Virus record (IMG/VR): IMGVR_UViG_2563366860_000002
DNA: 31,464 nt
From: a virus
Lineage: Duplodnaviria > Heunggongvirae > Uroviricota > Caudoviricetes
Reading direction: 5' to 3' (one strand)
In this document: positions 722-28,851 of the stretch, in pieces
Layout: each line of letters starts with the position of its first letter
How positions within the stretch are numbered: position 1 is the first letter of the stretch
Position numbers and translations under genes: made by a program
The notes under the pieces: model-generated
Databases searched by the model: none
Told to the model about the DNA's origin: nothing
Seen by the model: only the letters and a program-made list of their open reading frames with translations

Positions 722-726
722 GGGAT

Positions 727-1425: not shown

Positions 1426-1434
1426 CAGAGCCTC

Positions 1435-5528: not shown

Positions 5529-5541
5529 GTTCTCCACCTGC

Positions 5542-5565: not shown

Positions 5566-5585
5566 AAATGATGAGTATCGTCCTG

Positions 5586-6329: not shown

Positions 6330-6340
6330 TGCCACCTCCT

Positions 6341-7317: not shown

Positions 7318-7328
7318 CCCACACCTCT

Positions 7329-7920: not shown

Positions 7921-7934
7921 AACTGTCTCCGCAC

Positions 7935-7982
7935 AGCCCCGTTCAGGGGCTGATTTCAGGTACAAAAAAAGCCCTTACGGGC
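7935..7982 (-). terminator. Terminator-like hairpins immediately downstream of the capsid gene
   Basis: Minus strand GCCCGTAAGGGC followed by TTTTTTT about 25 nt after the capsid stop at 8007, plus a second hairpin CAGCCCCTGAACGGGGCTG; followed by the RBS of the next gene. Confidence 0.5.
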
Positions 7983-8006
7983 CATCAGAGTTGTTGTCTG
8001 CGACGT

Positions 8007-9965: not shown

Positions 9966-9978
9966 CCTGAACCAGGAA

Positions 9979-11487
9979 TTATTCTTCGGACTGGTCGTCG
10001 GTGTGCTGCGGCTCCTGTCGTTTCGTTGCGGCACTGCTGCCTCCTTTATCACTGGCCGGATCGGTATCAAATACCAGATCCAGCTTGCGGTTTTCATCAA
10101 TTTCGGCCTTGCGCCGACGTTTGACATCATCCGGATTACGACCACCTGCACGTACCCAGTCTGATTCTGTCGCCGCTCCACCACGAATCTGAATTTTCCA
10201 GGCCTCAGCCTCCTTAACAGGGTCAATCCACGGCATCACCGGTCCGGAATACACCGCGGTATACAGTGAAGAACGATCAAGATCGCGGGGTAGCCTGATA
10301 ACACCGGATGCCACAGCCTGTTTCAGCCAGGCACGATACATCGGGCGGGTGACGGCACCAATAAACCAGTCCTGCAGGATCAGGTAGCCATCAGTGGATT
10401 CAACCAGCTCCTGACGCTGGGCGCTGTAAGTGCCGTTATAGTTGCGTGCCGTACTGGAAAAACTCAGACGACTGCCCGCCGCCACGGCACGCAACTGACC
10501 ATTACGAAAAGTTTCAAGGTTAGGATTGGGACGATCCGACTTCACCATTCCGATTTCTTCGCCGGGTTTCAGATCGTCGTAAATAATGCCTGGCTGAATG
10601 GTAAGCTCGCGTTCATTCTCCTTGCTGCCATTACCATCCGGTTCATAGCTCTGCCCGTCGCCTTTCCGGATGTACATCCCCAGAGCAGCGGCGATCCTTG
10701 CTGCAGTCAGCTCAGAATCTTCATACTCTTTCAGGGCACTGAGGCGGATCAGCACACCGGACAACAAAGACGTCCCGCGCATCTGGTGCAGACGGCGAAC
10801 AAATTTAAGATGCAGCATTCGCTCTGCATCCACTTCTTTGGTTTCCATCTGCCGCCCGGATACGGGACGGCTTTTATACACCAGATATTTTTCGGGACGC
10901 CCCCAGTCATCAACAAACACGCCCTGATTCAGCCTGTTGCTCTCATCACTGGTCATGGGAATAAAGTCCGGCTCGAGCGCCTCCAGCCAGAAATGAACAC
11001 CGGCAGAAGGCGTCAGGCTGTTTATGCGCCCGGAAACCATCTGGGCAAACACCTCACCATCGCGCAGCCAGGTACGCAGCATCAGACGTTCCAGCATCGG
11101 ACGGGTAAACTGCCCGGTGACTTCCGGACTGACAGACCATTCACTCCATCGGGTGCGTATCTCCGCTGCCAGATCACGGGCAATGGCCCCATTGCGTAAT
11201 ACCGGATGTGGCTCGACAATAATCCCGTTTTTCCCCACCACCCGTTCTTCCAGCTTGTCAAATACACCAATAACCAGATCGTGGTTGTTATCAAGGTAAC
11301 GGGCCTGCTCACGTAACGACACGGCCCCGTACTGGCTTAACTGGTCGGCAGTTCGGTTTTCCCGCCGGGCTTTGTGTGTCCGTGTCGTTTTTACGGCCTC
11401 ATAAGCCTGGATCACCGCACGGGAACGCAGCCTTGCCGCTTTCCATCCTGGTGAAAAAACGCCAATCACATCATCAAGAATTGCCAT
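9979..11487 (-). CDS. Portal protein
   Basis: ORF 9979..11559; ATG at 11487 overlaps the gpW-like stop (ATGA); ~500 aa protein between gpW-like/terminase and the protease-capsid gene, as for lambda gpB. Confidence 0.85.
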   Translation of the reverse strand: MAILDDVIGVFSPGWKAARLRSRAVIQAYEAVKTTRTHKARRENRTADQLSQYGAVSLREQARYLDNNHDLVIGVFDKLEERVVGKNGIIVEPHPVLRNGAIARDLAAEIRTRWSEWSVSPEVTGQFTRPMLERLMLRTWLRDGEVFAQMVSGRINSLTPSAGVHFWLEALEPDFIPMTSDESNRLNQGVFVDDWGRPEKYLVYKSRPVSGRQMETKEVDAERMLHLKFVRRLHQMRGTSLLSGVLIRLSALKEYEDSELTAARIAAALGMYIRKGDGQSYEPDGNGSKENERELTIQPGIIYDDLKPGEEIGMVKSDRPNPNLETFRNGQLRAVAAGSRLSFSSTARNYNGTYSAQRQELVESTDGYLILQDWFIGAVTRPMYRAWLKQAVASGVIRLPRDLDRSSLYTAVYSGPVMPWIDPVKEAEAWKIQIRGGAATESDWVRAGGRNPDDVKRRRKAEIDENRKLDLVFDTDPASDKGGSSAATKRQEPQHTDDQSEE

Positions 11488-11699
11488 CAGAACCTCGCCA
11501 GCCGGTACCCGGGATGCCCCCGTCGTCGTGTAATCAGAGCCGCAAGGCGGCGCTCCCACTCCTGCCGTCCCTGCCGGATCTCAGATAAGTTTTCCATGGT
11601 CATCTGCTGACCATTAAAGGTGACGGATTTTCCGTCCAGCACCGCCATTTCAGCTTCCGTATAACGCTGAATCATGGCTTCGATATCATTCTGGTTCAT
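11487..11699 (-). CDS. gpW-like head-tail joining protein
   Basis: ~70 aa; ATG at 11699 overlaps the terminase stop with GGAGG upstream; C-terminal ...RRRGHPGY... resembles lambda gpW; position between terminase and portal. Confidence 0.7.
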   Translation of the reverse strand: MNQNDIEAMIQRYTEAEMAVLDGKSVTFNGQQMTMENLSEIRQGRQEWERRLAALITRRRGHPGYRLARF

Positions 11700-13798
11700 A
11701 ACCATCCTCCGGAAGTCAGCCAGGGGTTAACATCGTCAGTTACTGTTTTCTTCCGTTTTTGTTTTTTAACAGGCGTGGATACCGGTTCCGGTGTGGGTGA
11801 CGGTTCGGTACTGTCCGGGACACACTCCAGCCAGGTTTCCCGGCTCGCCCACTCCGGTGCATCCGGCCAGCGGATCTTTTCGTATCCATGCAGAATGACC
11901 AGAGCCTCGGCATACACCATCAGGTCAAAAGCTTCGTTGGCACCGCGACCCGGCTTACTCCATTTCCCGTCACTGCTCCGCTCTTCATACGTCAGTTCGT
12001 CGTAAAACCAGCTCCCCAGCCAGTCAGGGAAATGCACATAGCCGGGACCTGGCGAGTCACGCCATAACGCGTTATTCACCCGGTCTTTCAGGGCATCCGT
12101 CTGAAGAAGCCAGAGCGGCACATCACCTGCGGCCTGCGCCCGGCGGCCCGTTCGTCCGGTGTTATCAGGGAATGTACGGCTGATCAGTTTTGCGCGCCGG
12201 ATGCTGTCACCCTTAAACAGGTAAATACGTTTACCAAGGCCATCACGACGGCAACGACGCCAGAATTTATAGGCATTATCAGTGACCCCGTCTTCACCGC
12301 CGGAGTCCACCGCCATTGCCATCAGTCGCATTTGTTGAGAAGGATCGGAGGCCAGCGGCCAGCTTTTATGAAAAACATCCGTCAGCAGGACATCCCAGTC
12401 TTCCGGATAGCTGGCCGGATCAATTCGCTGGCTCTCCCCGTCGCTGTCACCGCGCAATGACTGCGTGATGTTGTAACGATCAATAATCCAGCGTTCGCCA
12501 CGGCTGCCATAGCCCGTTACCTGAACCACAAAACGGCGATGACGTCCCGCCTGCACATCCACTGTCGCCACAAGGAAATTAACGCCATCCGGCACACTGC
12601 GGGAAGGAACTGGCTCTGCCCGCTGCTCAAGCAATTCACTTTTTCGTTGCTCCATGCTGGCGCGGGGAAGATAAGGTAATCCCCAGTCGGTATTGATAAC
12701 CGTCTTGAGTGTCTCTTCACTTCCGGTTGTCTCGTATTCCTGTTCTGCAGTAAGCAGTTTGTAAACGAGTTGCGAGAGTGTCTGATAAGCAGCTGCCGGA
12801 CCCTCCATCCAGAATGACGCAATACGTGAACGCCGGGGATCACCATAACGACTGCCATCTGCATTGATGGATTCACCATCCCGTAACCAGACCCCACGTC
12901 CGTTCAGCTCGCGTTTTTGTTCAGGCAAAATCCGTCCTGAACAGGAAGGACACTGAATATAAGCCGCCTCACTTGCCAGCACAGGATCGGCAATATCACG
13001 GAAACCAGCAACCACATCGCCGCAGGGCTGAAAATACTCACCACAGTGTGGACAGGGCCAGTACCAGCGACGGCGATCGCCACGGTTATAGAGCGACAGG
13101 ATCCCCGTGGTTGGTGGAGCCTCATGCGGTGAAGTCCGTCGCCATTTCACATCCTTCACATCCCTGCCGGGGGAACTCTCCACCAGCGTCATACCACTGG
13201 ACATAAATGTGGTGGTACGTTTTGAGGCAAGAGAGAAGGCATCCCCCTCACCATCAATATCTTCCGGAAAACGGTCATAATCCGTCAGCGCCACGCATTT
13301 ATAATCTGATGAAGACATGATATTGACTGACGGCCAGCCGATTTTCAGGTAGTTGCCAGCAAGGAATGTTCTGTCATAAACGTTGTTGTCATTTTTGTTC
13401 GGACTCAGGCGACTGACCACTTCCGGGCTGACGCGAAACGTTCTGGCGAGTCGTTTTTTGGAGTGTTCGCGGGCTTTTTCCTCCGTCATCTGAATGATCA
13501 GCATATCAGCAGGATCGCAAATCACGTTGTAAATCACCCAGCCGTCAATCAGGCCGATAGTCTTGCCGGTTCGTGCCGGGCCAACAAATATCACTGCGTC
13601 GTATTCACGCGAGGCCAGGCAGTTCATAGGCTCAATAACATACGGTGCCACCAGCGGATCCCACGGGACTGAGTTCCCTGCCCCCATAGGCACCCGCATA
13701 TACTGAGCAACGGCATCAGCAACCCGCATTCGTCTCGGTGCGCGAAGGATATAACCTGAATCGGTTCGTGCTGCCTTTGCGGTTTCCTGATTCAGCAT
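11696..13798 (-). CDS. Terminase large subunit (lambda gpA-like)
   Basis: 700 aa; Walker A-like FVGPARTGKT; CPHCGE zinc-ribbon-like motif as I recall in lambda gpA; start overlaps the small-subunit stop. Confidence 0.95.
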   Translation of the reverse strand: MLNQETAKAARTDSGYILRAPRRMRVADAVAQYMRVPMGAGNSVPWDPLVAPYVIEPMNCLASREYDAVIFVGPARTGKTIGLIDGWVIYNVICDPADMLIIQMTEEKAREHSKKRLARTFRVSPEVVSRLSPNKNDNNVYDRTFLAGNYLKIGWPSVNIMSSSDYKCVALTDYDRFPEDIDGEGDAFSLASKRTTTFMSSGMTLVESSPGRDVKDVKWRRTSPHEAPPTTGILSLYNRGDRRRWYWPCPHCGEYFQPCGDVVAGFRDIADPVLASEAAYIQCPSCSGRILPEQKRELNGRGVWLRDGESINADGSRYGDPRRSRIASFWMEGPAAAYQTLSQLVYKLLTAEQEYETTGSEETLKTVINTDWGLPYLPRASMEQRKSELLEQRAEPVPSRSVPDGVNFLVATVDVQAGRHRRFVVQVTGYGSRGERWIIDRYNITQSLRGDSDGESQRIDPASYPEDWDVLLTDVFHKSWPLASDPSQQMRLMAMAVDSGGEDGVTDNAYKFWRRCRRDGLGKRIYLFKGDSIRRAKLISRTFPDNTGRTGRRAQAAGDVPLWLLQTDALKDRVNNALWRDSPGPGYVHFPDWLGSWFYDELTYEERSSDGKWSKPGRGANEAFDLMVYAEALVILHGYEKIRWPDAPEWASRETWLECVPDSTEPSPTPEPVSTPVKKQKRKKTVTDDVNPWLTSGGWL

Positions 13799-14292
13799 TA
13801 CTCCTCCTGCTGTAATTCCTCCTCATCATCCGCACCTGCTTCAGTCACCCGCAGGGCTATCTGATCGCGCAGATCATCAATAATGGACTGAACACGGCTC
13901 ACAGCGGCAGGCTGCAGACCGCAGTCACGTTCAAGAATATCCGGTAATGTCTCCAGCACCTGCACGACCGCTTTTGCCCAGATGGCAAACTCCCGTCTGA
14001 CATCACTGGCCGGAATGAGTTGTGCCGTTTCCTGTTCGAACTTAAGACGCTCACGTTCAGACTGATACCAGGCTTTGCGCTCATGCGCGTCCATTTCGCC
14101 TTCTGCAACCGGCGGTGGTAATGCCAGAAATGCCGACACAATATCAACCACCCGATAAAGCTTGAGGTTGCTTTCATGCCCCCCTGCAACGGGTAGATTT
14201 TGCAGCCTTGCCGCAGCAGTCTGGCGATGTACACCTGACAATGCCGCCAGTTGACTGATATTCAGCGTCAGATTTTTTAACTCTCGATCCAT
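13798..14292 (-). CDS. Terminase small subunit (Nu1-like, N-terminal HTH)
   Basis: 164 aa immediately upstream of and overlapping the large subunit; N-terminal HTH-like LNISQLAALSGVHRQTAAARL; acidic C-terminus; ~180 bp downstream of the cos-like site. Confidence 0.85.
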   Translation of the reverse strand: MDRELKNLTLNISQLAALSGVHRQTAAARLQNLPVAGGHESNLKLYRVVDIVSAFLALPPPVAEGEMDAHERKAWYQSERERLKFEQETAQLIPASDVRREFAIWAKAVVQVLETLPDILERDCGLQPAAVSRVQSIIDDLRDQIALRVTEAGADDEEELQQEE

Positions 14293-14439
14293 ACCCGCTC
14301 CAGAATGTTTTAAACATGCATCTTGCGAACAACTTTAGGCAAACGGTGTTAGTGATGAACAAAAAACAATCAGAATCGACACCATAAAAATAAATCCACT
14401 GTAATATCAATCAATTACAGTAGTGGTGATGACGAATAA

Positions 14440-14540
14440 AATTTCAAAAACTAGCCTTTTTCCGCGACGCTCCCGCCCCGTGGCAGGGGCCCCCACCGGG
14501 AGGACCCGACAGCCTGACAGCCTGACAGCCGTGACGAGCA
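14440..14540 (-). promoter_or_regulatory. Putative cos (cosN-like) DNA packaging site with flanking repeats
   Basis: Minus-strand ACGGGGCGGGAGCGTCGCGG at ~14462-14481 resembles my recollection of lambda cosN (ACGGGGCGGCGACCTCGCGGG) and sits ~180 bp upstream of the small terminase start, as cosN does relative to Nu1; 3 tandem GACAGCCT copies at ~14508-14531; inverted repeat CCACTGTAAT...ATTACAGTAGTGG at ~14396-14426. Confidence 0.45.
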
Positions 14541-14666
14541 TCTGATACAGCGCTTTACATAATGGCATAGGAATAATTCAGAAGGACATCACAGCATGCC
14601 CACACAAATTAGTGTGAGTGTCCTGTTTCTTCCTACGCACAGGACTGACGAGCATGAGGGGAAAAT

Positions 14667-14834
14667 ATGCGAACCATAAATGCCTCATCTTCAGCAATGC
14701 AGCCGGCATCCGAACAGGACGATATTGTAAATTCACCTAATTACGAGGACATTGCAGTAGTTGAATTGCAGCTCTGTATTAGCCTGACAGTGACAGAATG
14801 CGATATTGACTCTGTCACAGGTGAAATAGTTTGA
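14667..14834 (+). CDS. Small acidic hypothetical protein (55 aa)
   Basis: ATG with GAGGGG RBS 6 nt upstream; MRTINASSSAMQPASEQDDIVNSPNYEDIAVVELQLCISLTVTECDIDSVTGEIV; below the ORF-track size cut-off; no family recognised. Confidence 0.35.
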   Translation: MRTINASSSAMQPASEQDDIVNSPNYEDIAVVELQLCISLTVTECDIDSVTGEIV

Positions 14835-14854
14835 ATGATTAGCAGTTATGGTGC

Positions 14855-15061
14855 TCAGTCAACCACCAGGGAATAATCCTTCGAATTCTTATCGTGCTTC
14901 ACCAACGCTGCCTCAATTGCCCTGAATGCTTCCAGAGACACCTGATGTTCTATACATGCAATTACAACATCCGGGTAACTCATAGAAATGGTGCTATTAA
15001 GCATATTTTTTACACGAATCAGATCCAACGAGAGTTCATCAGCAGATTGTTCTTTATTCAT
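14855..15061 (-). CDS. Hypothetical protein (68 aa), convergent with the 55 aa ORF
   Basis: ATG start with GGAG ~9 nt upstream; [21 protein letters not shown]...; no family recognised. Confidence 0.5.
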
Positions 15062-15361
15062 TTTGTCGCTCCATGCGTTTGCTCGTCATCTAGCGGTTAA
15101 AATATTACTTCAAATCTTACTGCATAAAAGAGGAAAAGTATGAAAGTTTGAGTACATCGACCTTACATACATCTGTCGGTTGCATATCCCTCCTGGATGC
15201 CAGCAAGGCTCAATTTTGTTACGCAATCAACACTATTCATTAAAAACAGGCTTAATATTTGACATAAATCATCAACAAAACACAAAGAGGTCAGACCAGA
15301 TTAAAACAATAAACACGATAATGCAAACTACGCGCCATCGTATCACATGGAAGGTTTACCA

Positions 15362-15772
15362 ATGGCTCAGGCTGCCATTTTTAAAGAAATATTCGATCAA
15401 GTGCGTAAAGATTTAAACTGTGAATTATTTTATTCTGAGCTAAAACGTCACAATATCTCACTTTATATTTACTATTTAGCCACAGATAATATTCACATTG
15501 TGTTAGAAAACGACAACATAGTGTTAGTAAAAGGACTCAAAAAGGTTGTAAATGTTAAATTCTCCAGAAACAAACATCTTATAGAGACCTCCTATAATAA
15601 GTTGAAATCAAAAGAAATCACATTTCAACAATACAGGGAAAATCTTGCTAAAGCAGGAGTTTTCCGATGGGTTACAAATATCCAGGAACACCAAAGATAT
15701 TACTATGCCTTTGATAACTCATTACTATTTACTGAAAGCATCCAGAAAACTACACAGATCTTACCACGCTAA
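15362..15772 (+). CDS. DUF1398 (YdfO/YbcV-like) prophage protein
   Basis: ORF 15347..15772; ATG at 15362 ([18 protein letters not shown]...); family call from memory of prophage YdfO-type proteins; AT-rich codon usage typical of moron cargo. Confidence 0.65.
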
Positions 15773-15923
15773 ACCATAACGTCCGGCTTCTCTCACTCCT
15801 GAGCCGGACTGCATTGGTTTAATAAAAACCATCAACAATTGTGATTTAGATATTCGGAACCATTCAAATATAACAAAACCCCGTAAAAACGAGGTTTATG
15901 GATAAATTTTATTATTGAATACA

Positions 15924-16100
15924 TCAGATTAAATTAATCTTGACATCATAGCTTTCAAGACCCGTCATTTTTTCCCGTGCGGTAAACTGAATACTGGTAA
16001 CTTCTTTCCCGGTCTTTTTCTTAAGTTCAATAATTTTTTTTGTTATATATTCAGAAATATCTGCTTCTGCTTTTGTTTTTAAGTTTTCAATATTCATCAT
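15924..16100 (-). CDS. gnsB: GnsA/GnsB-family small protein (58 aa)
   Basis: Hand-translated: MMNIENLKTKAEADISEYITKKIIELKKKTGKEVTSIQFTAREKMTGLESYDVKINLI, resembling E. coli GnsB as I recall it; GAGGAA RBS; not in ORF track (<60 aa). Confidence 0.65.
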   Translation of the reverse strand: MMNIENLKTKAEADISEYITKKIIELKKKTGKEVTSIQFTAREKMTGLESYDVKINLI

Positions 16101-16268
16101 TTCCTCTTTTAGTCTGTTATGACTTTCCAGTTACACAGTAAGTCGATTATATGGTGCAAACGTGTAAAAGATAAGATGAAACATCGCAATAATCAACATA
16201 CGATAGTCTAAATTTTACACAAACAGACAAAGAGAATTTTCCTGAATTATCAATACAATAGCATCAAA

Positions 16269-16499
16269 TCAACTCAAGAGCCTTATTGCTGCTTCCAGAA
16301 TTTCTTCTGAAGTAACATGTCGATCCGCGGCTACATAAATGACTTTATGATCTCCGGTCAGAGATGGAAACCCTGCGGCCATTACAGTAAGGTGTGTTTT
16401 TTCGCCATTTGGATATTCACGCATGATGGTGTTAACTCCAGTCATCGCTGGCACTACCACTGCTGGTTCAGAGTTAAAAAAAACTATGATTTTTTTCAT
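16269..16499 (-). CDS. Hypothetical protein (~76 aa)
   Basis: ORF 16269..16541 (TTG); first ATG at 16499 (MKKIIVFFNSEPAVVVPAMTGVNTIMREYPNGEKTHL...); weak RBS; no family recognised. Confidence 0.45.
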   Translation of the reverse strand: MKKIIVFFNSEPAVVVPAMTGVNTIMREYPNGEKTHLTVMAAGFPSLTGDHKVIYVAADRHVTSEEILEAAIRLLS

Positions 16500-16542
16500 G
16501 ATGTTACCGTAGTATGTGAGTATCCATCGAATAGATACCAAG

Positions 16543-16572
16543 CAAAAAAGCTCCCGAAGGAGCCTTCATTTT
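16543..16572 (-). terminator. Intrinsic terminator downstream of the cspI-like gene
   Basis: Minus strand GGCTCC-TTCG-GGAGCT followed by TTTTTTGCTT; an A-tract on the other side also allows bidirectional function. Confidence 0.5.
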
Positions 16573-16770
16573 CACTTTTTTAAATCCAACGACAGACGGC
16601 TGGCATTTAAGTATTGTGAAATATTATCAAATGTAATCATCATTGATTTACAAAAGATACATTTTGCCCCGAAAGGATTCATGTCAGAAACATCAAAAGA
16701 TGATGTTCTATACTGGGAACCATGACAACACGGGCATCTAAAGTGAATATGGTTTGTAATATTGTCTACC

Positions 16771-16983
16771 TCAAAGCGCCACTACATGAACAGCGGCAGG
16801 ACCTTTAGGTCCGTTCTCAATACCAAATTCAACTTCCTGATTCTCAGTTAATGTTTTGAAATCGTTGCTCTGAATTGCTGAGAAATGGACAAACACATCT
16901 TTGCTGCCATCTTTCGGCGTGATGAAACCAAAACCTTTTTCAGGGTTAAACCATTTCACTAAACCAGTCATTTTGTTAGACAT
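16771..16983 (-). CDS. cspI: Cold shock protein (CspI-like)
   Basis: 70 aa; [38 protein letters not shown]... with canonical CSD RNP motifs (KGFGFI, VFVHF); ~360 bp AT-rich 5' region consistent with a long cold-shock leader. Confidence 0.9.
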
Positions 16984-17346
16984 AATTATTACCTTTTGAA
17001 GAAATTAGCCCTTGGGCAGAATGGTCCGAAAAAAAATATCAGAGAGAAAAACCAACAAGGAAATCTCAAGAGGTACAAATAATAAAATTATAACAATGAC
17101 TGCTTCAGATAAATTTGTAACAAACCAGAACACCATTAACGCATGATTAACCACCCATAGCAAGGATTACTTTTGTAAAGAAAAACACAGCAATGAAAGA
17201 ATAGCTTTATTTATTAATAATAACGTGTCATTCTGATTAAGACCTTTTATCTTACCCTTAAGATTTCAGGAATTTTGGCTCATGGAAGAGTCCTTTTTAT
17301 TTAAATTTTACATTCCGCGATGTAAATGTTCCGATTTAATATTACC

Positions 17347-18370
<1,024 letters not shown>

Positions 18371-18374
<4 letters not shown>

Positions 18375-18658
18375 ATATATTTATGATGAGGACGCTCGTG
18401 CTTATTGGCAGGATTTTCAATCTTAAAGGAGTACTGATGCTGCAGATAAGACTCAACTTTTTCTGACAATTTTTCTGCTACTTCCAGGAAGACTTGCCGG
18501 ACGCTCCTTCTGGCTGCTGCCTCATAAAACTCCAGCGCAGCTCCTTCAACACGGTCCATGGCGACATCCAGGTCAAAAATTTCACCGTCAAAGCGTTCTT
18601 TGTCCTGTAAGGCTACAGTTACCGTAACTTTATTCTCAAAATTACGGACTCCTTTCAC
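18371..18658 (-). CDS. YdfR-like small protein between holin and endolysin
   Basis: 95 aa ORF with GTG start; occupies the slot held by ydfR in Qin-type lysis cassettes; function unknown. Confidence 0.55.
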
Positions 18659-18686
18659 AACCAGTTCATAGTCTTGAGTCGTTGGA

Positions 18687-18902
18687 TTACTCTCCTCTCG
18701 CAGCCTTACGCCTGTCTTCTTTAATCTTGAAATAAAGATTTGTCAGATACGTCAGCAGGCCAAAAACCAGGCTACCCAGCACACCGATTGCAGCCCACTG
18801 TGACGGAGTTACTTTATCGAGTAACTGCAATGCCCAGAAACCAGCATTACCCGCCGATGTGCCATAGGCAACACCTGTTGTTAACTTATCCATTGATTTC
18901 AT
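18687..18902 (-). CDS. S: Class II holin (S21-type pinholin) with dual-start motif
   Basis: ORF 18687..18977; ATG at 18902 gives 71 aa [71 protein letters not shown]; two TM segments; Met1/Met4 start pair; GAGG RBS. Confidence 0.85.
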
Positions 18903-19121
18903 ATCCTCACCCCGATGTACACGGATGGTGCAATATGTTTGAAAAGATCGGAGTCTACGGGGTAGTTTTGACAGCACACGTTGTTCTCAACGGCGCTAAA
19001 AAAACATACACATTAAAAATGTGGGTAATTATTTTGAAAGAAAGTCATATATAAAATAATAATACGAGAAATGTTTTCATATTTAGTGTACTGTATACGG
19101 CCATTTATACAGGAAAAGCCT

Positions 19122-20805: not shown

Positions 20806-21558
20806 TTATCTCGTCACCTTCCTCAATTGCGCTTCCGCGTATGCTTCTTCCTGCCAGCACTTTGTTACCAGTTTATCAATGACGTCCGCATACCCCTTAT
20901 ACCACTGATAATCGGTCAGGTCTGGTACCAGCTTCTGGACATGACGTCGTGCCAGCGTGGTCGGTAAACGACTAAATCGGTTTCCATTACAACGCCCACA
21001 AATCTTATATACCGGTACGCCATGAAACCGGGTTCTTTTTTCATCCAGAACAATCCCTTTACCCTTACACCCTCTGCACGCTGTGCTGACTTCGCCCTTA
21101 CCATGGCAATGCTGACATAGTTCCTTCACCCATTCTTCCTTGATTACAGATTCCCCGCGTCTGTAGTGTTTCACCACTTCGCGCAATACATTATAAAATC
21201 CCGTACCTGAACAATGCTCACAGCGAGCCTTACTTGCCGCAGACCTGGAGTAATCAGCAAAGGCAAAATTCACAAGGTAAGGAATAATCTGTAACCGGAT
21301 TTCTTCACTCAATTTGTTCAATGTCGGGTTATCCAGTGCCATCGCGTAATTTAGCAGGCCTTCAATCGCAAACTGAGGGTCCTGAACACCAACTTTTGCC
21401 AGAAATAAGGCCAACCCAAGTGGTGCTTTCGACTGCACCATCCCCTGCGCTGCCATTACATCCGTAATTGTTAAACAACCGGTGCCTGTCGCTGGAGCGT
21501 CATCGCTCAATTTTGGAGATTTTGGGGAGTAATATTTTGGTAAGGCTTCAAGGTTCAT
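20806..21558 (-). CDS. Q: Late gene antiterminator Q
   Basis: 250 aa; Cys/His-rich zinc-binding region (CEHCSGTG...CQHCHGKG...CRGCKGKG...CGRCNG); position immediately upstream of pR'/tR' and the lysis cassette; same length as the Qin-type Q homolog. Confidence 0.85.
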   Translation of the reverse strand: MNLEALPKYYSPKSPKLSDDAPATGTGCLTITDVMAAQGMVQSKAPLGLALFLAKVGVQDPQFAIEGLLNYAMALDNPTLNKLSEEIRLQIIPYLVNFAFADYSRSAASKARCEHCSGTGFYNVLREVVKHYRRGESVIKEEWVKELCQHCHGKGEVSTACRGCKGKGIVLDEKRTRFHGVPVYKICGRCNGNRFSRLPTTLARRHVQKLVPDLTDYQWYKGYADVIDKLVTKCWQEEAYAEAQLRKVTR

Positions 21559-21571
21559 GCTCGTTCTCCAC

Positions 21572-22660
21572 TTACGCCAGTACGCCAGTTGCCAGCGCGC
21601 GATCGATAAAACGAAATATCAGCTCCAGTTGGGAGCCATACTTCTCTTCAAATGCCACTGTATCCGTATGCAGCTCGTTGTGATGCTTTCTGCACAAAGG
21701 CAACACAAAGAGATCATGTGCTTTTGTTCCCATTCCGCCCTGCCCGTGACCAATCAGATGATGCGGATCGTCGGCTGGCATACCGCAGCAAGCACACGGC
21801 TGTGTCTTAACCCAACGAGTGTATTTCTCCTTAACCCAGCGGCGACGTTTAGGCAGCTTCATGAAAGATTCCGGAGACTCTGGATCAACGGTGATGCTTA
21901 CCACCGTCTTTTCCTGTGGTGGTTTTTGTTGCTGGTGGGCGTAAGGCAACGGTGCAAGATTTTCTGTGCGTTGTTTCAATATGCTGGTGGCGGTCTGCTC
22001 TCCCTGTACGATGTCGCTTTCGCGGTACACCGAGCAGATTTTTTCCGCTGGTAATCCCAGCGAACGACGCGATACAGCCTCAGGTAGTGCATCCACCACC
22101 TGATTGCAGACCGCCCACCAGGATAATTCAGCCAAAGATAATTCCCGCTCCTGCGTACCGCTTATTGCGTGACGGATGACGTCAATCACCCATGCTGTCA
22201 GATTTTGTTGAGCAAGCAGCTCCAGTGATTCCGATGTCTGGTCACGCAGTTGGTTGTCGCAGTGCCAGCACAACACCATTGCGCCGGTACCATAACGGTG
22301 AATGACTGTTTCAGTGTGATGGTAATCGCCATTAGGCCACTGGCAGGATGTAACATGACGTAATAGCCAGTCAGACAATGCGCCAACGCCGCCAGTAGCA
22401 CGAATCACCCGTTCGTTACTAAAAAACGGCAGCAATGTTTTGTCTTCTGCCAGCGGCTGGCGAACGGCAGGAACGACTCCGGATGGCAGATTTCGCATGC
22501 TTTTTGGTTCCGGTTCCACCAGCACTCGAGGATTATGAAATATCTGTATGGATTCACGGCCCGGCTTAAGGACCACCAGCCCAAGCTCAGGCACCAGAAC
22601 AGGTCTAAGTAATACCCGCACGTTACCTCCAGATCCGTTGCTGGAAAGTGCGGGACGCAC
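21572..22660 (-). CDS. DUF968 (YdfU-like) protein with C-terminal HNH/zinc-finger-like motif
   Basis: 362 aa from GTG; C-terminal ...QPCACCGMPADDPHHLIGHGQGG...LPLCRKHHNELH; occupies the nin/Q-proximal slot. Confidence 0.75.
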   Translation of the reverse strand: MRPALSSNGSGGNVRVLLRPVLVPELGLVVLKPGRESIQIFHNPRVLVEPEPKSMRNLPSGVVPAVRQPLAEDKTLLPFFSNERVIRATGGVGALSDWLLRHVTSCQWPNGDYHHTETVIHRYGTGAMVLCWHCDNQLRDQTSESLELLAQQNLTAWVIDVIRHAISGTQERELSLAELSWWAVCNQVVDALPEAVSRRSLGLPAEKICSVYRESDIVQGEQTATSILKQRTENLAPLPYAHQQQKPPQEKTVVSITVDPESPESFMKLPKRRRWVKEKYTRWVKTQPCACCGMPADDPHHLIGHGQGGMGTKAHDLFVLPLCRKHHNELHTDTVAFEEKYGSQLELIFRFIDRALATGVLA

Positions 22661-22901
22661 GTGGTGGGCGTTCGGAATAAGGCAGCCTGACAGAGATTAT
22701 CCAGTGCCGATAGTCGAGACTGAGAGCTTTCTTAACCTCGAACCCGCGCCTGCGGTAAGAATGAATCAGCCATTCGGCCTGTTCTGCAGTGCATGGAGGG
22801 TGCTGGAACCATTCAGACTTGAATGCGTGAGAATACCGCCCGTGCGTGCAGGCAAGAACGGGCGAATTATCAGAATTGTAATATTTTACGTTGCGTGCCA
22901 T
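22623..22901 (-). CDS. Hypothetical protein (92 aa), overlaps the DUF968 gene start by 38 nt
   Basis: ATG with GGAG RBS; MARNVKYYNSDNSPVLACTHGRYSHAFKSEWFQHPPCTAEQ...; could instead be a frameshifted N-terminal part of the downstream gene. Confidence 0.5.
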   Translation of the reverse strand: MARNVKYYNSDNSPVLACTHGRYSHAFKSEWFQHPPCTAEQAEWLIHSYRRRGFEVKKALSLDYRHWIISVRLPYSERPPRASRTFQQRIWR

Positions 22902-22967
22902 CGGTTTTCTCCGGTGGCACGGTGTTACTCAGCGGGAGTTCAGCCCCGCGCAAGATTGTAGATGAGT

Positions 22968-23219
22968 TTATTCTTCTGCAAAAGCAGAAAAGCCAGCTTT
23001 TATTCCGATCTCTTTCAATGCCTGTAATGAAGTGACAAACTCACCTTCGCGCAAGATAAATCCGTCCGTGACCCGAGCATCCACAAAATTAATTAACGCA
23101 GCCCCATTCTTTCGCAAACACATAATGCGGTAATGACTAACAAGATTTCCATTTTCAACGCACACAGCATAGAGGCCATCTTCACAAAAAATTTTACGCA
23201 GTTCTTCGATGTTCATCAT
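22968..23219 (-). CDS. Rem-like small prophage protein (83 aa)
   Basis: Tandem ATG start with GGAAGG RBS; length and position (just downstream of hokD, upstream of DUF968) match my recollection of rem in Qin; sequence identity not verified. Confidence 0.55.
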   Translation of the reverse strand: MMNIEELRKIFCEDGLYAVCVENGNLVSHYRIMCLRKNGAALINFVDARVTDGFILREGEFVTSLQALKEIGIKAGFSAFAEE

Positions 23220-23334
23220 CAGAATCCTTCCGGATAATTAGCTCTCCCCTTTAAGGGACCATCCCTCTTATCCCTGCGCGCTACTTAAGTATTTTTGATT
23301 CTATTCCGGCACCGTCCAGATCTTCAAACGCGTT

Positions 23335-23367
23335 GAAAATAAAAACAAAAACCCGCCGAAGCGGGTT
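23335..23367 (-). terminator. Intrinsic terminator downstream of hokD
   Basis: Minus strand ACCCGC-TTCG-GCGGGT followed by TTTTTGTTTTTATTTT. Confidence 0.6.
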
Positions 23368-23435
23368 AAGTGCGGGTGCGTTGAGGATGCCTGCCACATC
23401 AGAGGTGGCGAGGGATTTCTCCCTCGCCGGGTCTC

Positions 23436-23591
23436 TTACTCCTCAGGTTCGTAAGCTGTGAAGACAGCGACCTCCGTCTGGCCGGTTCGGATTCGTACCT
23501 CGCAGAGGTCTTTCCTCGTTACCAGTGCCGTCACTATGACGGTTAAACAGATGACGATCAGGGCGATTAACATCGCCTTTTGCTGCTTCAT
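23436..23591 (-). CDS. hokD: Hok/Gef-family type I toxin (HokD/RelF-like), 51 aa
   Basis: MKQQKAMLIALIVICLTVIVTALVTRKDLCEVRIRTGQTEVAVFTAYEPEE; single TM; the overlapping longer frame (to 23648) is consistent with a mok-like leader ORF. Confidence 0.9.
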   Translation of the reverse strand: MKQQKAMLIALIVICLTVIVTALVTRKDLCEVRIRTGQTEVAVFTAYEPEE

Positions 23592-23599
23592 AGCCTGCT

Positions 23600-23720
23600 T
23601 CTCCTTGCCTTTCGGCTCGTAAGAGGCTAACCTACATGTGTCTAGCATGAAATTGGCCTCAGATTAATGTTAAGCGTCTTGCAGGACGCGTAATGTTAAC
23701 TGGGGCTTTTCTCTATCTGC
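23600..23720 (+). ncRNA. Putative Sok-like antisense RNA opposite the hok mRNA leader (approximate position)
   Basis: Inferred from hok/sok paradigm only; the hok leader region is ORF-poor; no promoter or terminator mapped. Confidence 0.3.
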
Positions 23721-23828
23721 CTTTCAGTGTTCATGCCTGAGACAGATAGCCTCAAGCACCCGCAGCCATTCTACTTAACTCACGTCACCTCGCCAATATG
23801 AAATCAATCAGAAAGGTGATCCATAAAA

Positions 23829-24515
23829 TCACTCCTTCTCTTCTTTTCCGTAGTGGAGTTGGCCAATTTTGATAAGAGGGCGTCCCTGAGATTTGCGGTG
23901 TAGATTGGTATCGCGCAGAGAATACACACAGCCACAATATTCCTGCTGATAGAATTTTTCGCGCTTGCTGATTTCAATCATACGGGACGAGCCGCCCTGC
24001 TTGCGCCAGTTATAATCCCAGTACACCATACCCGGATAATGCGCAACAGCTCGCCGCCCACACTCGTTAACCTGCTGCATATTTTTCCAGCGTGAAATGC
24101 CCAGTGAACTGCTGATCACACTGAAACCATTTTCAGCAGCGTACAACGCTGTCCGCTCAAAACGCATGTCAAAACACATGGTACAACGGATCCCCCTCTC
24201 AGGCTCCCATTCCATTCCTTTGGCACGTTCAAACCAGTTGTCGGTGTCGTAATCAGCATCGATAAACGGCACGCCGTGTTGTTCAGCAAAGCGAATATTT
24301 TCATCCTTACGAATTAAATACTCTTTCTGAGGATGAATGTTCGGGTTGTAGAAAAAGATGGTGTAGTCGATTCCCGAGGCCTGAAGCGCCTCCATCACTT
24401 CACCGGAACATGGAGCACAGCAAGAGTGCAGTAGTAGTTTGTTTGCCCCGTTTGGGAGCTCCAATTTAGGCCGTTTGAAATCAGCAATAGTCATAAATAT
24501 TTTTATTGGGGTCAT
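23829..24515 (-). CDS. DUF208 / QueH-like protein (epoxyqueuosine reductase family homolog)
   Basis: 228 aa; conserved Cys motifs [17 protein letters not shown] and C-terminal [10 protein letters not shown] as I recall for DUF208/QueH; start ambiguous (24515 or 24494), no clear SD. Confidence 0.7.
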
Positions 24516-24668
24516 GAAAATAGCACAGAGTGTAGCATCAGAGCAGGGCTATCGGGAATATATGTCTAAATCTGGTAATATCTGGTTTTGACGCAAAGCG
24601 GACAACCACGCTGGCTCTACCCTGCGCCATGAAAATGTCAATTCACATCTGAACTAATGCTCTTTAAT

Positions 24669-25094
24669 CTAGTAACGTCTAAAATACCTAACATTTCCTT
24701 GATAAAATGCCAGTACACGCTGCATAGCTTCGCTCTTCCGGCACTCGCGACAGATTATATTCAGGCGCCTGTCGTAGCGGCGTATTTCGCCGTCTGGTAA
24801 CGACCAGATAAGGTCCGGATCAACCACTGCAGGTTTCTTCACCTTTGCCCTTGAGAGTTTTTTGCGAGCATTTTGCCAGTCCTTACGCGCCTGTTCAGAC
24901 GGGAATAACCCGTAACCAGAGTTGTATACATCGCCACTGGCAACCAGCTCTCTGGCGAGAACACTCATCAGATATCTTGTCGCACCTGTCTTGGCTTCCA
25001 GTTGCCGCAACGTCTCGCGACCGCTCAGACGTACAAGTTCAACAACCTGCCCTTTAATTTTTTCCCGCTCTTCTTGTGTAAATACTTTTGCCAT
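24669..25094 (-). CDS. Hypothetical nin-region protein (141 aa)
   Basis: ORF 24669..25109 (TTG); ATG at 25094 with GGAGG RBS; basic C-terminus with CxxC (ICRECRK); no family recognised. Confidence 0.6.
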   Translation of the reverse strand: MAKVFTQEEREKIKGQVVELVRLSGRETLRQLEAKTGATRYLMSVLARELVASGDVYNSGYGLFPSEQARKDWQNARKKLSRAKVKKPAVVDPDLIWSLPDGEIRRYDRRLNIICRECRKSEAMQRVLAFYQGNVRYFRRY

Positions 25095-25109
25095 AAGCGC
25101 CTCCGGCAA

Positions 25110-25880
25110 TCACTTTTCCGATACAACACGGCGGGAAGAATCAGTAATCTGTCGAACAATATCCCGGTGCTTGTTCAGCTCCCGCAGCGCGGCGCAGACT
25201 CGCTCCCACTTCTGAACATCACTTTTCGCCCTGCGCAGCGCCAGGTTTGCCCTGCGAAGGGACGGAAAAATCAGCTCATCTGCTTGCGTTTCGGTAAACG
25301 ATGGCAACGGCTGCACAATGTCCGCCACAGTTTCTGTTTTAATTTCTTCCTGTGTTGCGGCTTCCCGGACTGGTAACGCAGCACCTGCTGGCTGAGGAAA
25401 GGCCTTACCATCACTTTCCGTTACCAGCGCGGCTTTCGGCTCTGCTGGTAAATTATCGCCCGGCATGCAGTAACGAAATTTACCGTTCTGATTAACGCGT
25501 GCCAGCCGCCCCGTTGCGGTTACCACCGCCAGCGTGGAAGCAACCTTGCGAGTACTGACACCGAACTTACCCGCCAGTTCCTCACACGTTTTAGCCCCAT
25601 CCTGACCGATAAACTCAATCATCATGTCTGCGGTAACTTTTTGTTCGACCTCCCCGGTCAGCATATCCTGTGCTTCAGATTTTACTGGCCGCTCTTCGGT
25701 TACCCGGGATTCACCTTCGCCAGCCAGAAACCAGGTGTGACCAGTTTTATCAACGACGCCTTTTCTTTTGAGTTCCCACAGCTCGTTGACAGCCTCTTCA
25801 CGACTGATTCCAAGGCGAGCTGCCACCACATGTGAAGAGGCTTTTTTCAGTGCTTTCAGTGCGTCAGATACGGTTTCCAT
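25110..25880 (-). CDS. DUF1627-like prophage protein (N-terminal winged-HTH-like)
   Basis: 256 aa; ATG start; N-terminal ...AARLGISREEAVNELWELKRKGVV...; family call from memory. Confidence 0.65.
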   Translation of the reverse strand: METVSDALKALKKASSHVVAARLGISREEAVNELWELKRKGVVDKTGHTWFLAGEGESRVTEERPVKSEAQDMLTGEVEQKVTADMMIEFIGQDGAKTCEELAGKFGVSTRKVASTLAVVTATGRLARVNQNGKFRYCMPGDNLPAEPKAALVTESDGKAFPQPAGAALPVREAATQEEIKTETVADIVQPLPSFTETQADELIFPSLRRANLALRRAKSDVQKWERVCAALRELNKHRDIVRQITDSSRRVVSEK

Positions 25881-25901
25881 TAAAATTTCCTCCGGACAAA
25901 A

Positions 25902-26648
25902 TTACTTCACAACCCTCATATTGCTGACATTTGGACGCCAGCTATCCCAGTTAAACGTCACCCATCGACCACCGTTCATGGTCATGCGGTCCATAATCCT
26001 CTCACCAAGAAGCGTACTCATTGCGGCATGATTCAGGTTTGTTAACATCCCGACACTGCACAGTGATGCTGTCCGGCGATCAATTATCTGGTGCAATACC
26101 ACCTGCTCGTTTTTCGTCTCCCGCTGAACGCCTATTTCATCCAGGACCAGCAAATCAACCCCGCAAAGCTCCTGTAAAAATTTTTCCCCGGATTTGCCGT
26201 TGTCGTAGCTGTCATGCAACACGCTCATGACGTCAGACACGGTGACGATAATCACGCTGCGCCCCTTCACCATCAGCCGGTTGCCCATCGCCGCTGCAAG
26301 GTGATTTTTCCCGGTGCCGGTTTTACCGCTGAACACAAAATTCGTGCACCCGGTCATCAGTTCGTCAGCTATGGATTTGGCCTGGCTCAGCGCGTATTTT
26401 TGCCCGTCGTTCTGCACCTGATAATTTGCAAACGAGCATTTGCTGTGCAGAGGCTGGATGCCCGAACGATTCAGGATTTTTTCCACCCGCAACTGGCGAT
26501 TCTGGCGGTTAATCTCCTCGCTGCGTTTTCGTCCTTCAGCAAGTTGCCATTCCCGCCACTCCTCCACCGTCCGGTACGGTGGAACCGACCCCTGTGGTGC
26601 AAGTCTGCGAATACGTTCAAGAACCCCAACTGCCGCAATGTTTTTCAT
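25902..26648 (-). CDS. DnaC-like replicative helicase loader (IstB-like AAA+ ATPase)
   Basis: 248 aa; Walker A FSGKTGTGKNHLAAA, Walker B LLVLDEIG; immediately downstream of the O-like initiator. Confidence 0.9.
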   Translation of the reverse strand: MKNIAAVGVLERIRRLAPQGSVPPYRTVEEWREWQLAEGRKRSEEINRQNRQLRVEKILNRSGIQPLHSKCSFANYQVQNDGQKYALSQAKSIADELMTGCTNFVFSGKTGTGKNHLAAAMGNRLMVKGRSVIIVTVSDVMSVLHDSYDNGKSGEKFLQELCGVDLLVLDEIGVQRETKNEQVVLHQIIDRRTASLCSVGMLTNLNHAAMSTLLGERIMDRMTMNGGRWVTFNWDSWRPNVSNMRVVK

Positions 26649-26654
26649 GACACG

Positions 26655-27617
26655 TCACCCCCTGAATCCCGGCGGTATTTCAGTGTCCGGTTCAGAAATG
26701 TGATTCACGCAACGCTGCGCAGGCGAACGCCCCAGGCGGATAACCAGTTCATCCCATTTTTCCCGGAGTTTTGCCGGACTCATGATGTTTTTTACCCAGA
26801 ACGAATCCCGCTGGAGACGCCCAAACATTTCACAAATTTGTCTGTGAGTTCTGCCATCCAGCATCCGCATTGTGCGAACGTCATTGGCCCATGCTGTCCA
26901 GTTGGGTTCTTTCGGTCTAGTGATCTCGCCATCATAGCTGGCCGCCTGCTCGTAAAGACTCACGATTCGTCCCCAGATCCACTGTGCGCACACCAAATCT
27001 TCCTGACTTCCCCACTGGCGTTTTTTCGCACTGAACACAACCGCGTCAGGGTGTCGGGTTAAAAAATCCTGTTCAGCCGTCTGCGGGTCCGGTTGCGAAG
27101 CGTCCGGACAAGAAGATCTTTTATCTGACGGATCAGGTTTTAATACTGACGGATCGGGGTCAATCATCGCCCCCCTAATCGGCAGTTTTTTATCAACAGT
27201 TGATCCATCAAAATTTGACGGGTCAACCGTTGAGGGGTCAATATTTGACGGGTCAACTGTTAACGGGTCATTTTTTGCCGGGCTAATTTTTCTTTTCGGT
27301 TTATATGACTCACGCGCCGCCGCCGCAGCTGCTTCGAGTTTTTCCACATTAAGCCGATAGATATTGCTTACATTACGCCCACCGACCTTACGCTCTTCCT
27401 TCGTCAGCCAGCCCTCTTTCGCCAGTTCTGCAATAGCCGATTTCACTGTGGATTCACTTCTTGCACCGATCTGACGCCGGATAGTTTCAATGGCAGGCCA
27501 TGACACGCCCTCGTCATTGCTGTAGTCTGCAAGACGGGCCATAACCGCCACCCTGGATAAGATCATGCCGGTGAAGGCGCACCCTTCCCAGACAAGACCA
27601 TGAAGCTTGCTGCTCAT
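26655..27617 (-). CDS. Replication initiator (lambda O-like; N-terminal DNA-binding domain)
   Basis: ORF 26655..27632 (GTG); ATG at 27617 with GGGGG RBS; iteron array inside the coding region encodes a repetitive DPSNIDPSTVDPSNFDGSTVD peptide, as in lambda O/ori. Confidence 0.85.
   Translation of the reverse strand: MSSKLHGLVWEGCAFTGMILSRVAVMARLADYSNDEGVSWPAIETIRRQIGARSESTVKSAIAELAKEGWLTKEERKVGGRNVSNIYRLNVEKLEAAAAAARESYKPKRKISPAKNDPLTVDPSNIDPSTVDPSNFDGSTVDKKLPIRGAMIDPDPSVLKPDPSDKRSSCPDASQPDPQTAEQDFLTRHPDAVVFSAKKRQWGSQEDLVCAQWIWGRIVSLYEQAASYDGEITRPKEPNWTAWANDVRTMRMLDGRTHRQICEMFGRLQRDSFWVKNIMSPAKLREKWDELVIRLGRSPAQRCVNHISEPDTEIPPGFRG
27120..27300. repeat. Replication origin: iteron array inside the O-like gene followed by an AT-rich stretch
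   Basis: About 6-7 direct ~15 bp repeats (TTGACGGGTCAACCG / TTGAGGGGTCAATAT / TTGACGGGTCAACTG / TTAACGGGTCATTTT; degenerate copies TGACGGATCAGG, TGACGGATCGGGGTCAAT), then TAATTTTTCTTTTCGGTTTATATGA. Confidence 0.6.
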
Positions 27618-27639
27618 AAAACCCCCGAACACCGTGCTT

Positions 27640-28065
27640 TTAGTGCATCACCACAGCATTCCCTGCCGGGCCGCCGCGATTCATCTGGTCATACAAAACA
27701 ACCGCTGACGCAACAAAATCATCGACATCCTTCACCAGCCGATCCCTCCGTTCGACGATCTCACGGTAATATTCAGAACTGTGGCTGCGCATACGGGCCA
27801 CCAGCAAAGGCGGCATCGCCTTTTCGATCGCCGGTAACAGAGCCTGCATTTTTTCAACAGCATCAGGGGTGTCTTTCTCTACCCAGCGGAAAATTTTCTG
27901 GGTATTGCGAGCCAGGGCTTCCGGATGGCTGTCGTCATACAGTTCTGGGAACGTCATACCCAACTCAAAATAAGCCTGGGTTATTCCAGCTGCTGGAACT
28001 TTTTCGCCATCAGGACGCGCCCAGGCATTCATCGCCATGCGGATGTGTTCATGCTTGATTTTCAT
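27640..28065 (-). CDS. YdaT-like protein (putative toxin-domain regulator in cII position)
   Basis: 141 aa; ATG with GGAG RBS; overlaps the Cro/YdaS-like gene end by 17 nt; family assignment from memory of Rac ydaS-ydaT. Confidence 0.6.
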   Translation of the reverse strand: MKIKHEHIRMAMNAWARPDGEKVPAAGITQAYFELGMTFPELYDDSHPEALARNTQKIFRWVEKDTPDAVEKMQALLPAIEKAMPPLLVARMRSHSSEYYREIVERRDRLVKDVDDFVASAVVLYDQMNRGGPAGNAVVMH

Positions 28066-28330
28066 GAATCAAGCTCCTAGAAAGTGGTTGTGTTAACGTT
28101 TTGGTATCTTCCAGCTCGGGCCAAATATTCATCCAATCAAAAGGCCTTAGTTGCTGACGTGTAACTTCACCATTACTGGCTCGCTCAATAAGGACACATA
28201 ACGATGCCCCTAACACTTGACCTTTACTCAATGCCTTTCTTAGATAACCGATGCTGGTACCACACTCGCATGCAAACATACGCTGTTCATCTGACGAAAG
28301 AGAATTGAGAAATATTCTTAATTCTTCCAT
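28049..28330 (-). CDS. Cro/YdaS-like HTH regulator (first gene of the early-right operon)
   Basis: 93 aa; strong AAGGAG RBS; HTH-like ECGTSIGYLRKALSKGQV; divergent from the repressor across an operator-bearing intergenic region. Confidence 0.75.
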   Translation of the reverse strand: MEELRIFLNSLSSDEQRMFACECGTSIGYLRKALSKGQVLGASLCVLIERASNGEVTRQQLRPFDWMNIWPELEDTKTLTQPLSRSLIHENQA

Positions 28331-28431: not shown

Positions 28432-28851
28432 ATGGACAAATATGAATTTAGACGACAGCAACTCATCAAAATTCGTGATGAGAAATGCGATGGTAAAGCG
28501 GTTAACGTGGCCAGAAAGATCGGGCGCGAGCCTTCTTATGTATCAAGAATGTTGTACCCAGAGGGGAAAAAGGGAAAAAAACGGATCGCTGATGATATGG
28601 TGGAGATTATCGAAGAGTCCTTTGGGTTACCCCGGGGATGGATGGATGGTATCGTTTCATCATCAACGAACACAGCCTCCAGTTATGAAACAAGGGTTCT
28701 AACGCCACGACAACGTATTTTTTTAGATCTCTTAGACGAACTGCCAGAAAGTGAAGCGGATAAATTATTAAAAACTCTTGAAGAGAAAAAACAGTATTAC
28801 AATATGATCTACGAAGAAATCCGTAAAAAGAAAGCACAAAACGCATCATAG
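28432..28851 (+). CDS. CI-like prophage repressor (XRE-family HTH; no LexA-type peptidase domain seen)
   Basis: 139 aa; N-terminal HTH (AVNVARKIGREPSYVSRML); C-terminal region lacks S24 Ser/Lys autocleavage features; divergent from the Cro-like gene. Confidence 0.75.
   Translation: MDKYEFRRQQLIKIRDEKCDGKAVNVARKIGREPSYVSRMLYPEGKKGKKRIADDMVEIIEESFGLPRGWMDGIVSSSTNTASSYETRVLTPRQRIFLDLLDELPESEADKLLKTLEEKKQYYNMIYEEIRKKKAQNAS

Follow-up and report, generated by a model that had tools for sequence, protein, structure and literature searches.

What is a gene for the final step of queuosine (Q) synthesis doing in a lambdoid prophage, when the host of that prophage already has an enzyme for the same step? 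The question is raised by a 31,464-nt stretch of viral DNA (Caudoviricetes; IMG/VR record IMGVR_UViG_2563366860_000002), referred to below as the window, in which a sequence-only reading had recognized a homologue of the epoxyqueuosine reductase QueH. The analysis described here points to the presence, very probably, of a functional QueH that was captured from a bacterial chromosome and is carried as cargo in the nin-equivalent slot of the prophage, where it most likely allows Q to be completed independently of vitamin B12.

The longest ORF for queH in the ORF list of the window occupies positions 23829..24515 on the minus strand and comprises 228 codons; translation of the plus strand over the same interval was riddled with stops. 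The sequence-only reading had reported this ORF and its length of 228 aa but not its strand, and the ORF itself exists, although its start was probably placed seven codons too early. The candidate start codons were compared in an alignment of the upstream regions from seven alleles, five of prophages and two of Klebsiella plasmids. The ATG at 24515 (Met1) was not conserved, being replaced by CATTA in the prophage of strain ST70 and in the Klebsiella plasmid alleles, whereas the ATG at 24494 (Met8) was invariant across the aligned prophage and plasmid alleles. The RefSeq protein WP_000150294.1 also begins at Met8, giving a product of 221 aa, and the N-terminal length of chromosomal QueH homologues fits the same start. 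For these reasons the coding sequence, annotated as epoxyqueuosine reductase QueH on the basis of its Pfam match, its conserved start and its RefSeq counterpart, most likely extends over 23829..24494 on the minus strand. No clear Shine–Dalgarno sequence was found before either ATG.

The DUF208 assignment was confirmed by a strong, full-length match to PF02677 (Epoxyqueuosine reductase QueH, DUF208), which scored 221.5 bits (E = 1.1e-65) against a curated cut-off of 23.5 bits and covered profile positions 1–174 of 175. PF02677 was the sole Pfam family to match the protein. No NCBIfam model matched it in a profile scan, so the QueH name used by RefSeq must derive from another rule. The three cysteine motifs on which the sequence-only reading had relied are indeed present, namely HSCCAPCS (residues 30–37), RCTMCF (residues 110–115) and YCGC (residues 193–196). 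The best sequence match in the PDB was QueH of Thermotoga maritima (7LC5) and relatives (E = 8e-22), to which the identity was only approximately 31 %; nevertheless, all six cysteines of the crystallized T. maritima enzyme (C9, C10, C87, C90, C169 and C171) paired with cysteines of the window protein.

A wider view of these residues was obtained from a family alignment of 52 diverse full-length members, taken from the 4,774 matches (E ≤ 0.001) that emerged when 1.84 billion representatives were searched exhaustively. C32, C33, C36, C111, C114, C194 and C196 are all present in the window protein, and each of these cysteines was found in between 47 and 52 of the 52 homologues. A further seven residues (N59, E65, Y66, R69, E106, R110 and K144) were invariant or nearly so in the 52 sequences and all are retained in the window protein. 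Cys36, within the CCAPC motif, corresponds to Asp13 in T. maritima; since cysteine occupies this position in 50 of the 52 members and is the family consensus, it is the T. maritima enzyme that is the outlier. The assignment of metal ligands is derived from the alignment to the crystallized protein, from conservation within the family and from the way in which mutant entries are named in the PDB. Structures of T. maritima QueH carrying C9S and D13N are available there, together with a queuosine complex, which means that the N-terminal motif is an experimentally probed active-site region.

An AlphaFold2 model of the window protein built from 20 sequences was of moderate confidence (mean pLDDT 70.7, pTM 0.70). 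Its five best fold matches in the PDB were all T. maritima QueH, with TM scores of 0.69–0.71 normalized to the target and a best E value of 7e-10, followed by α-hydrolase folds of the TtuA and LarE type. The predicted fold thus resembles that of T. maritima QueH (7LC5, 7LC7 and 9DEU), which is adenine-nucleotide α-hydrolase-like, and the two proteins agree at the conserved N, E, Y, R and K residues. Within the limits of evidence from sequence and predicted fold, the window protein is established as an intact, full-length member of the QueH family. Unlike the T. maritima gene, however, it is encoded on a prophage whose host has QueG as well.

The genomic setting was examined by running Pfam on 38 further ORFs, comprising the long minus-strand ORFs (at least 90 aa) that matched annotated phage genes and several unassigned ones. 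These contained no families other than lambdoid ones for structure, lysis, regulation and replication, and identified the window as a Rac/Qin-type lambdoid prophage with a gene order that reads from right to left, and the RefSeq annotation of near-identical prophages agreed with this gene map. A cI-like repressor (28432–28851, plus strand) is followed by a YdaS/Cro-like gene and YdaT, and then by the replication module, consisting of an O-like HTH protein, a DnaC/IstB-like ATPase, DUF1627 and, as its last gene, DUF977 (24669..25109, minus strand; PF06163, E = 7e-28). Beyond queH lie a hokD/sok locus, two small ORFs, a DUF968/HNH gene and the Q antiterminator, after which come the lysis genes (holin, DUF1327, lysozyme and DUF2514) and finally DUF1441, the large terminase, the portal, a ClpP–capsid fusion and lambda-like tail genes. 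The location in the nin region proposed from the letters alone was therefore borne out, queH having the replication genes on one side and DUF968 with the Q antiterminator on the other, and being in the orientation of the early-right operon. No tRNA genes were detected in the window by ARAGORN.

Some further features of this map were noted. The DUF968 gene, with an HNH-like C-terminus, abuts the Q antiterminator (20806–22660, minus strand), and the RusA gene that intervenes in the prophages of O104:H4 and F2_407_2_2 is missing. The fusion of a ClpP-like protease to the major capsid protein (8007–10226, minus strand, 739 aa; Pfam CLP_protease and Phage_capsid_4) is represented by a longest ORF that overlaps the portal ORF (9979–11559, minus strand) by approximately 250 nt, and its listed upstream start is probably over-extended.

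Directly downstream of queH is the hokD/sok type I toxin–antitoxin locus, which is complete (23436..23761, minus strand), identified by both Pfam and Rfam. It comprises the Hok ORF (23436–23648, minus strand; HOK_GEF, E = 3e-23) and sok RNA (23586–23761, minus strand; RF01794, 117.8 bits), and a promoter/terminator scan placed a promoter-like site at 23796–23768 and a terminator-like hairpin at 23367–23350, both on the minus strand. A sub-threshold isrK-like Rfam match (E = 0.005) overlaps the terminator region of this locus (23346–23796). Strain ST70 carries queH without a neighbouring hokD, and hokD/sok is a mere neighbour with no functional tie to queH.

Comparison with related prophages showed how queH is inserted. 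In blastn comparisons with the prophage of KS21, homology to the window ended near the end of DUF977 and restarted just upstream of hokD, which delimits a queH cargo segment at approximately 23782..24689 (minus strand). Between DUF977 and hokD the KS21 prophage carries instead approximately 10 small, unrelated hypothetical genes (locus L002, 14350–17250), and because other genes occur there the interval can be regarded as a variable cargo position. Presence of queH thus varies among otherwise related prophages, KS21 lacking it in the same slot. Where queH is present its upstream neighbour is constant: DUF977 adjoined it in 79 of the 80 IMG/VR loci retrieved and in all annotated prophages examined. 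A short methyltransferase fragment was seen between DUF977 and queH in phage HannyBb and in strain 95-3322 (slot loci L009, 5762–5968, and L011, 6768–6953).

The DNA immediately upstream of queH contains a candidate promoter. A conserved block, CTGATGCTACACT (24529..24541, minus strand), lies approximately 40 nt upstream of Met8 and includes an extended −10-like element, TGCTACACT (24537..24529, minus strand). The sequence CTGATGCTACAC was invariant in all seven of the aligned prophage and Klebsiella plasmid upstream regions, with diverging flanks; the final T that completes the −10 hexamer of TGCTACACT differs in ST70, in which the first eight bases are kept. Within the window TGCTACACT occurs only once, and it is also found at −40 of the chromosomal queH of Erwinia. 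In Providencia and Photorhabdus, −10-like hexamers could be discerned by eye approximately 25 to 40 nt upstream of queH. A consensus promoter scan called no promoter upstream of queH, and the corresponding scan revealed no terminator between queH and hok. Rfam detected no riboswitch or other RNA upstream of queH, the only Rfam element being the downstream hok/sok.

In plasmid copies of queH and in divergent prophage copies, homology was limited to the coding sequence and approximately 45–95 nt upstream. This confinement, together with the conservation of TGCTACACT across the copies, suggests that queH moved with its own promoter, for which the TGCTACACT block is the putative candidate. The gene would then behave as an autonomous, moron-like unit that may also be read through from the early operon upon induction. 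It shares with lambdoid morons and accessory genes of the nin region the character of a single optional gene between conserved modules, missing in close relatives and provided with a candidate promoter; unlike a typical moron, it has no detected terminator of its own and its promoter is only putative.

The sequences of the prophage alleles indicate that this gene is being maintained. Pairwise Nei–Gojobori comparisons among four prophage alleles gave dN/dS values of 0.046–0.065, or approximately 0.05, at dS of up to 0.45, and queH is accordingly under strong and long-standing purifying selection within the phage lineage.

With regard to origin, the window protein was 79–86 % identical to chromosomal QueH of Erwinia, Providencia, Photorhabdus, Gibbsiella and Proteus. 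The chromosomal proteins of the Enterobacterales have the same length as the window QueH, and in Erwinia TGCTACACT lies equally far upstream. The neighbours of the chromosomal genes were core or other non-phage genes, including in Photorhabdus, with queH located at purL–glrK in Erwinia and at tmcA–purC in Providencia. Synonymous sites were saturated between the prophage gene and its counterparts in Providencia and Photorhabdus, which indicates that capture from these lineages was not recent. Across the Alpha-, Beta- and Gammaproteobacteria identity within this QueH subfamily was 74–86 %, a range that held for copies from Sphingomonas, Stenotrophomonas, Pseudomonas, Neisseriaceae, Rhizobium and Paracoccus when compared with the E. 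coli prophage copy. Identity this high across classes points either to very severe constraint or to widespread horizontal transfer and, combined with the saturation of synonymous sites, means that no donor can be named.

The sequence-only reading had described a queuosine-pathway enzyme as an unusual cargo for a lambdoid prophage, which overstates the case. A search of 5,426 complete E. coli genomes with the 687-nt ORF gave 995 carriers (approximately 18 %), with at least 80 % of the gene covered in 985 of them and at least 99 % identity in 707; the matches fell in 1,014 chromosomal and three plasmid places, and the carriers include O104:H4, O157:H7, ST131 and APEC strains. A sample of 40 rows from the whole ranking of the 995 uniformly bore the annotation ‘epoxyqueuosine reductase QueH’ with no pseudogene label, although the copy in H104 covers only 65 % of the gene. 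In contrast to this patchy distribution, queG was present in all 5,426 genomes, so queH in E. coli always adds to queG and never replaces it.

Among viral sequences, 190 IMG/VR contigs contained a relative, and the best 80 of these 190 were all 100 % identical. In the isolated Escherichia phage HannyBb the same slot is occupied by a 95 % identical copy, for which the annotation reads ‘hypothetical protein’. More distant QueH homologues (33–78 % identity) were encountered in phage-labelled records, including Acinetobacter phage MD-2021a (328–378 kb), ‘Bacteriophage sp.’ contigs from human faeces and records labelled as Staphylococcus and Listeria phages; several of these are of small size or lack annotation, and may represent contaminating bacterial sequence. 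Among 80 species-representative genomes with the closest homologues (L098–L177), phage genes were neighbours of queH in Escherichia albertii only.

Plasmids form the other group of carriers. PLSDB contained 302 plasmid records with a QueH homologue, 136 of them typed as conjugative, the genera represented including Klebsiella (99), Escherichia (67), Bacillus (48), Ligilactobacillus (32) and Acinetobacter (23); many IncF plasmids are among the carriers. Plasmid-borne QueH showed 87–92 % identity to the window protein. The gene stands alone, 1–4 kb downstream of annotated repA genes, in two IncF plasmids of Klebsiella (L016 and L017, at 7004–7672 in both). The occurrence of the same gene on conjugative plasmids as well as on prophages argues for a benefit to the carrier rather than one specific to the phage.

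That benefit is most readily sought in the cofactor requirements of the two reductases. E. coli does not synthesize the corrin ring de novo. Its complete Q pathway (PMC5372724) ends with QueG (E. coli b4166), a chromosomal enzyme that likewise converts epoxyqueuosine (oQ) into Q but depends on cobalamin and [4Fe–4S] clusters (PMC6461909). All E. coli genomes with queH encode QueG too, and the two enzymes are not homologous, PF02677 being the one Pfam family matched by the window protein. In enteric bacteria grown in glucose–salts medium lacking B12, tRNA has oQ34 rather than Q34, according to Frey et al. (1988) as cited in PMC6850298. QueH has been described as a cobamide-independent, iron-dependent alternative to QueG for this final step (PMC5372724; PMC6461909; PMC13443448).

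As a cobalamin-independent iron–sulfur enzyme (EC 1.17.99.6), the prophage QueH would reduce oQ34 to Q34 in the host tRNA-Asp, tRNA-Asn, tRNA-His and tRNA-Tyr by means of its Fe–S centre, making Q formation independent of the supply of B12. Since QueG needs B12 and E. coli does not make B12 de novo, such B12-independent completion of Q is the most likely selective value of the gene. Under this proposal queH, having been captured from a bacterial chromosome with approximately 45–95 nt of its own upstream DNA, would be carried by Rac/Qin-type lambdoid prophages as an optional gene in their nin-equivalent slot and would allow Q synthesis to be finished without B12 for the lysogen and, upon induction, for the translation of the phage. 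We infer from the evidence above that the protein is catalytically active in E. coli, that it can be expressed from its own promoter and that independence from B12 is the advantage that it brings. Of the two roles suggested by the sequence-only reading, the one in host tRNA modification is thus well supported as an inferred function, whilst for a part in deazaguanine modification of DNA there is no support, no partner gene having been found among the scanned ORFs of the window or in annotated related prophages.

Several other explanations of the gene were weighed against B12-independent completion of Q. The benefit might lie with the phage itself, in that queH would be transcribed with the early-right genes after induction and full Q modification would aid the translation of late genes rich in NAU and NAC codons, any gain to the lysogen being incidental. 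This is rather unlikely as the main explanation, although the two proposals are mutually compatible. It fits the position of queH, which forms part of the early-right operon, shares its orientation and lies after the replication genes and before Q, and the presence of the gene in the isolated phage HannyBb; the share of NAU among Asn, Asp, His and Tyr codons was also higher in late genes (64 %) than in early genes (55 %), but this codon bias is small and not decisive. For single amino acids, NAU usage in the late genes (727–18977) reached 72 % for His and 70 % for Asp; the early genes were those at 20806–28330, and the value for queH itself was 46 %. Less easily accommodated by a benefit to the phage are the close copies on conjugative IncF plasmids, which lack any phage context, and the conserved promoter-like element that accompanies the gene. 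Other cargo fills the slot in related prophages, which indicates that queH is dispensable for the phage cycle, and tRNA turnover within a short lytic cycle would restrict the effect of a modification enzyme. A different kind of service to its carriers would be a conflict-related role. BtuB is the receptor for B12, for the E colicins and for some phages, and colicin E5, which targets the Q-family tRNAs, enters via BtuB. Uncoupling Q from B12 uptake could permit repression or loss of BtuB with Q being retained, or the modification could alter how readily the Q-family tRNAs are attacked by anticodon nucleases, colicin E5 among them. Prophages and conjugative plasmids are typical carriers of conflict genes and both bear queH, which in the window adjoins hok/sok; however, the protein had no match among the PADLOC defence models, and no literature was found on the relative sensitivity of oQ- and Q-containing tRNA to nucleases. 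We judge this role to be improbable.

The remaining two explanations were rejected. That queH is a neutral or decaying passenger without current function might be thought from its redundancy with queG in every genome and from the variability of the slot, but the dN/dS of approximately 0.05 over dS of up to 0.45 and the retention of all conserved cysteines and other invariant residues speak against a pseudogene, as do the intact, QueH-annotated ORFs in the 40 sampled rows of the 995 (H104, with 65 % coverage, included) and the repeated acquisition of the gene by plasmids; we consider a passenger very improbable. Still harder to sustain is a place for QueH in a 7-deazaguanine route that shields phage DNA from restriction, which is improbable in the extreme. 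To our knowledge, epoxyqueuosine has not been described as a constituent of DNA. Queuosine-pathway genes are tied in general to deazaguanine modifications of phage DNA (PMC6884629), and the enzymes of such clusters are phage-encoded, as is the prophage queH. These clusters centre, however, on DpdA and the preQ0 synthesis genes FolE and QueC/D/E. The sequence-only reading had seen no other Que or Dpd genes, and in agreement no DpdA/TGT-like transglycosylase and no FolE, QueC, QueD, QueE or QueF was found among the scanned ORFs of the window, which excludes the integrase end of the prophage; the related prophages annotated in RefSeq likewise lack DpdA/TGT and Que partner genes. It is this absence of partners on which the rejection rests. 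Moreover, the deazaguanine-modifying viruses analysed by Hutinet et al. (2019) are reported to lack QueA, QueG and QueH (PMC6884629), and the window protein is 79–86 % identical to housekeeping QueH with every invariant residue kept.

The identification of the protein is not in itself new, as RefSeq gives the name QueH to exactly this protein, which close to a thousand complete E. coli genomes encode. Phage resources, on the other hand, have an annotation gap. In PHROGs the window protein was assigned to phrog_3217 (E = 1.7e-138), a family of ‘unknown function’ whose profile begins at residue 34, past the CC motif, and the HannyBb copy is a ‘hypothetical protein’. A survey of viruses published in 2019 reported no QueH homologues in the viruses analysed (PMC6884629), and literature searches on QueH of E. 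coli prophages or plasmids returned no specific paper.

What seems to have been under-appreciated is the pattern as a whole: prophages and conjugative plasmids of the Enterobacteriaceae maintain, under strong purifying selection, an enzyme of tRNA modification for a step that the host universally performs with an enzyme of its own, from which it differs in cofactor requirement. More speculatively, and on balance unlikely, QueH on mobile elements such as Escherichia prophages and Klebsiella IncF plasmids may constitute a selected ‘cofactor-independence’ module, which would keep tRNA fully modified in B12-poor niches or after repression or loss of BtuB and could act as a lysogenic-conversion or fitness factor. 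If B12-independent completion of Q by QueH holds true, the queuosine status of approximately 18 % of E. coli strains would respond to B12 in a different way from that of K-12, and this would bear on studies of Q-dependent translation, virulence and biofilm phenotypes.
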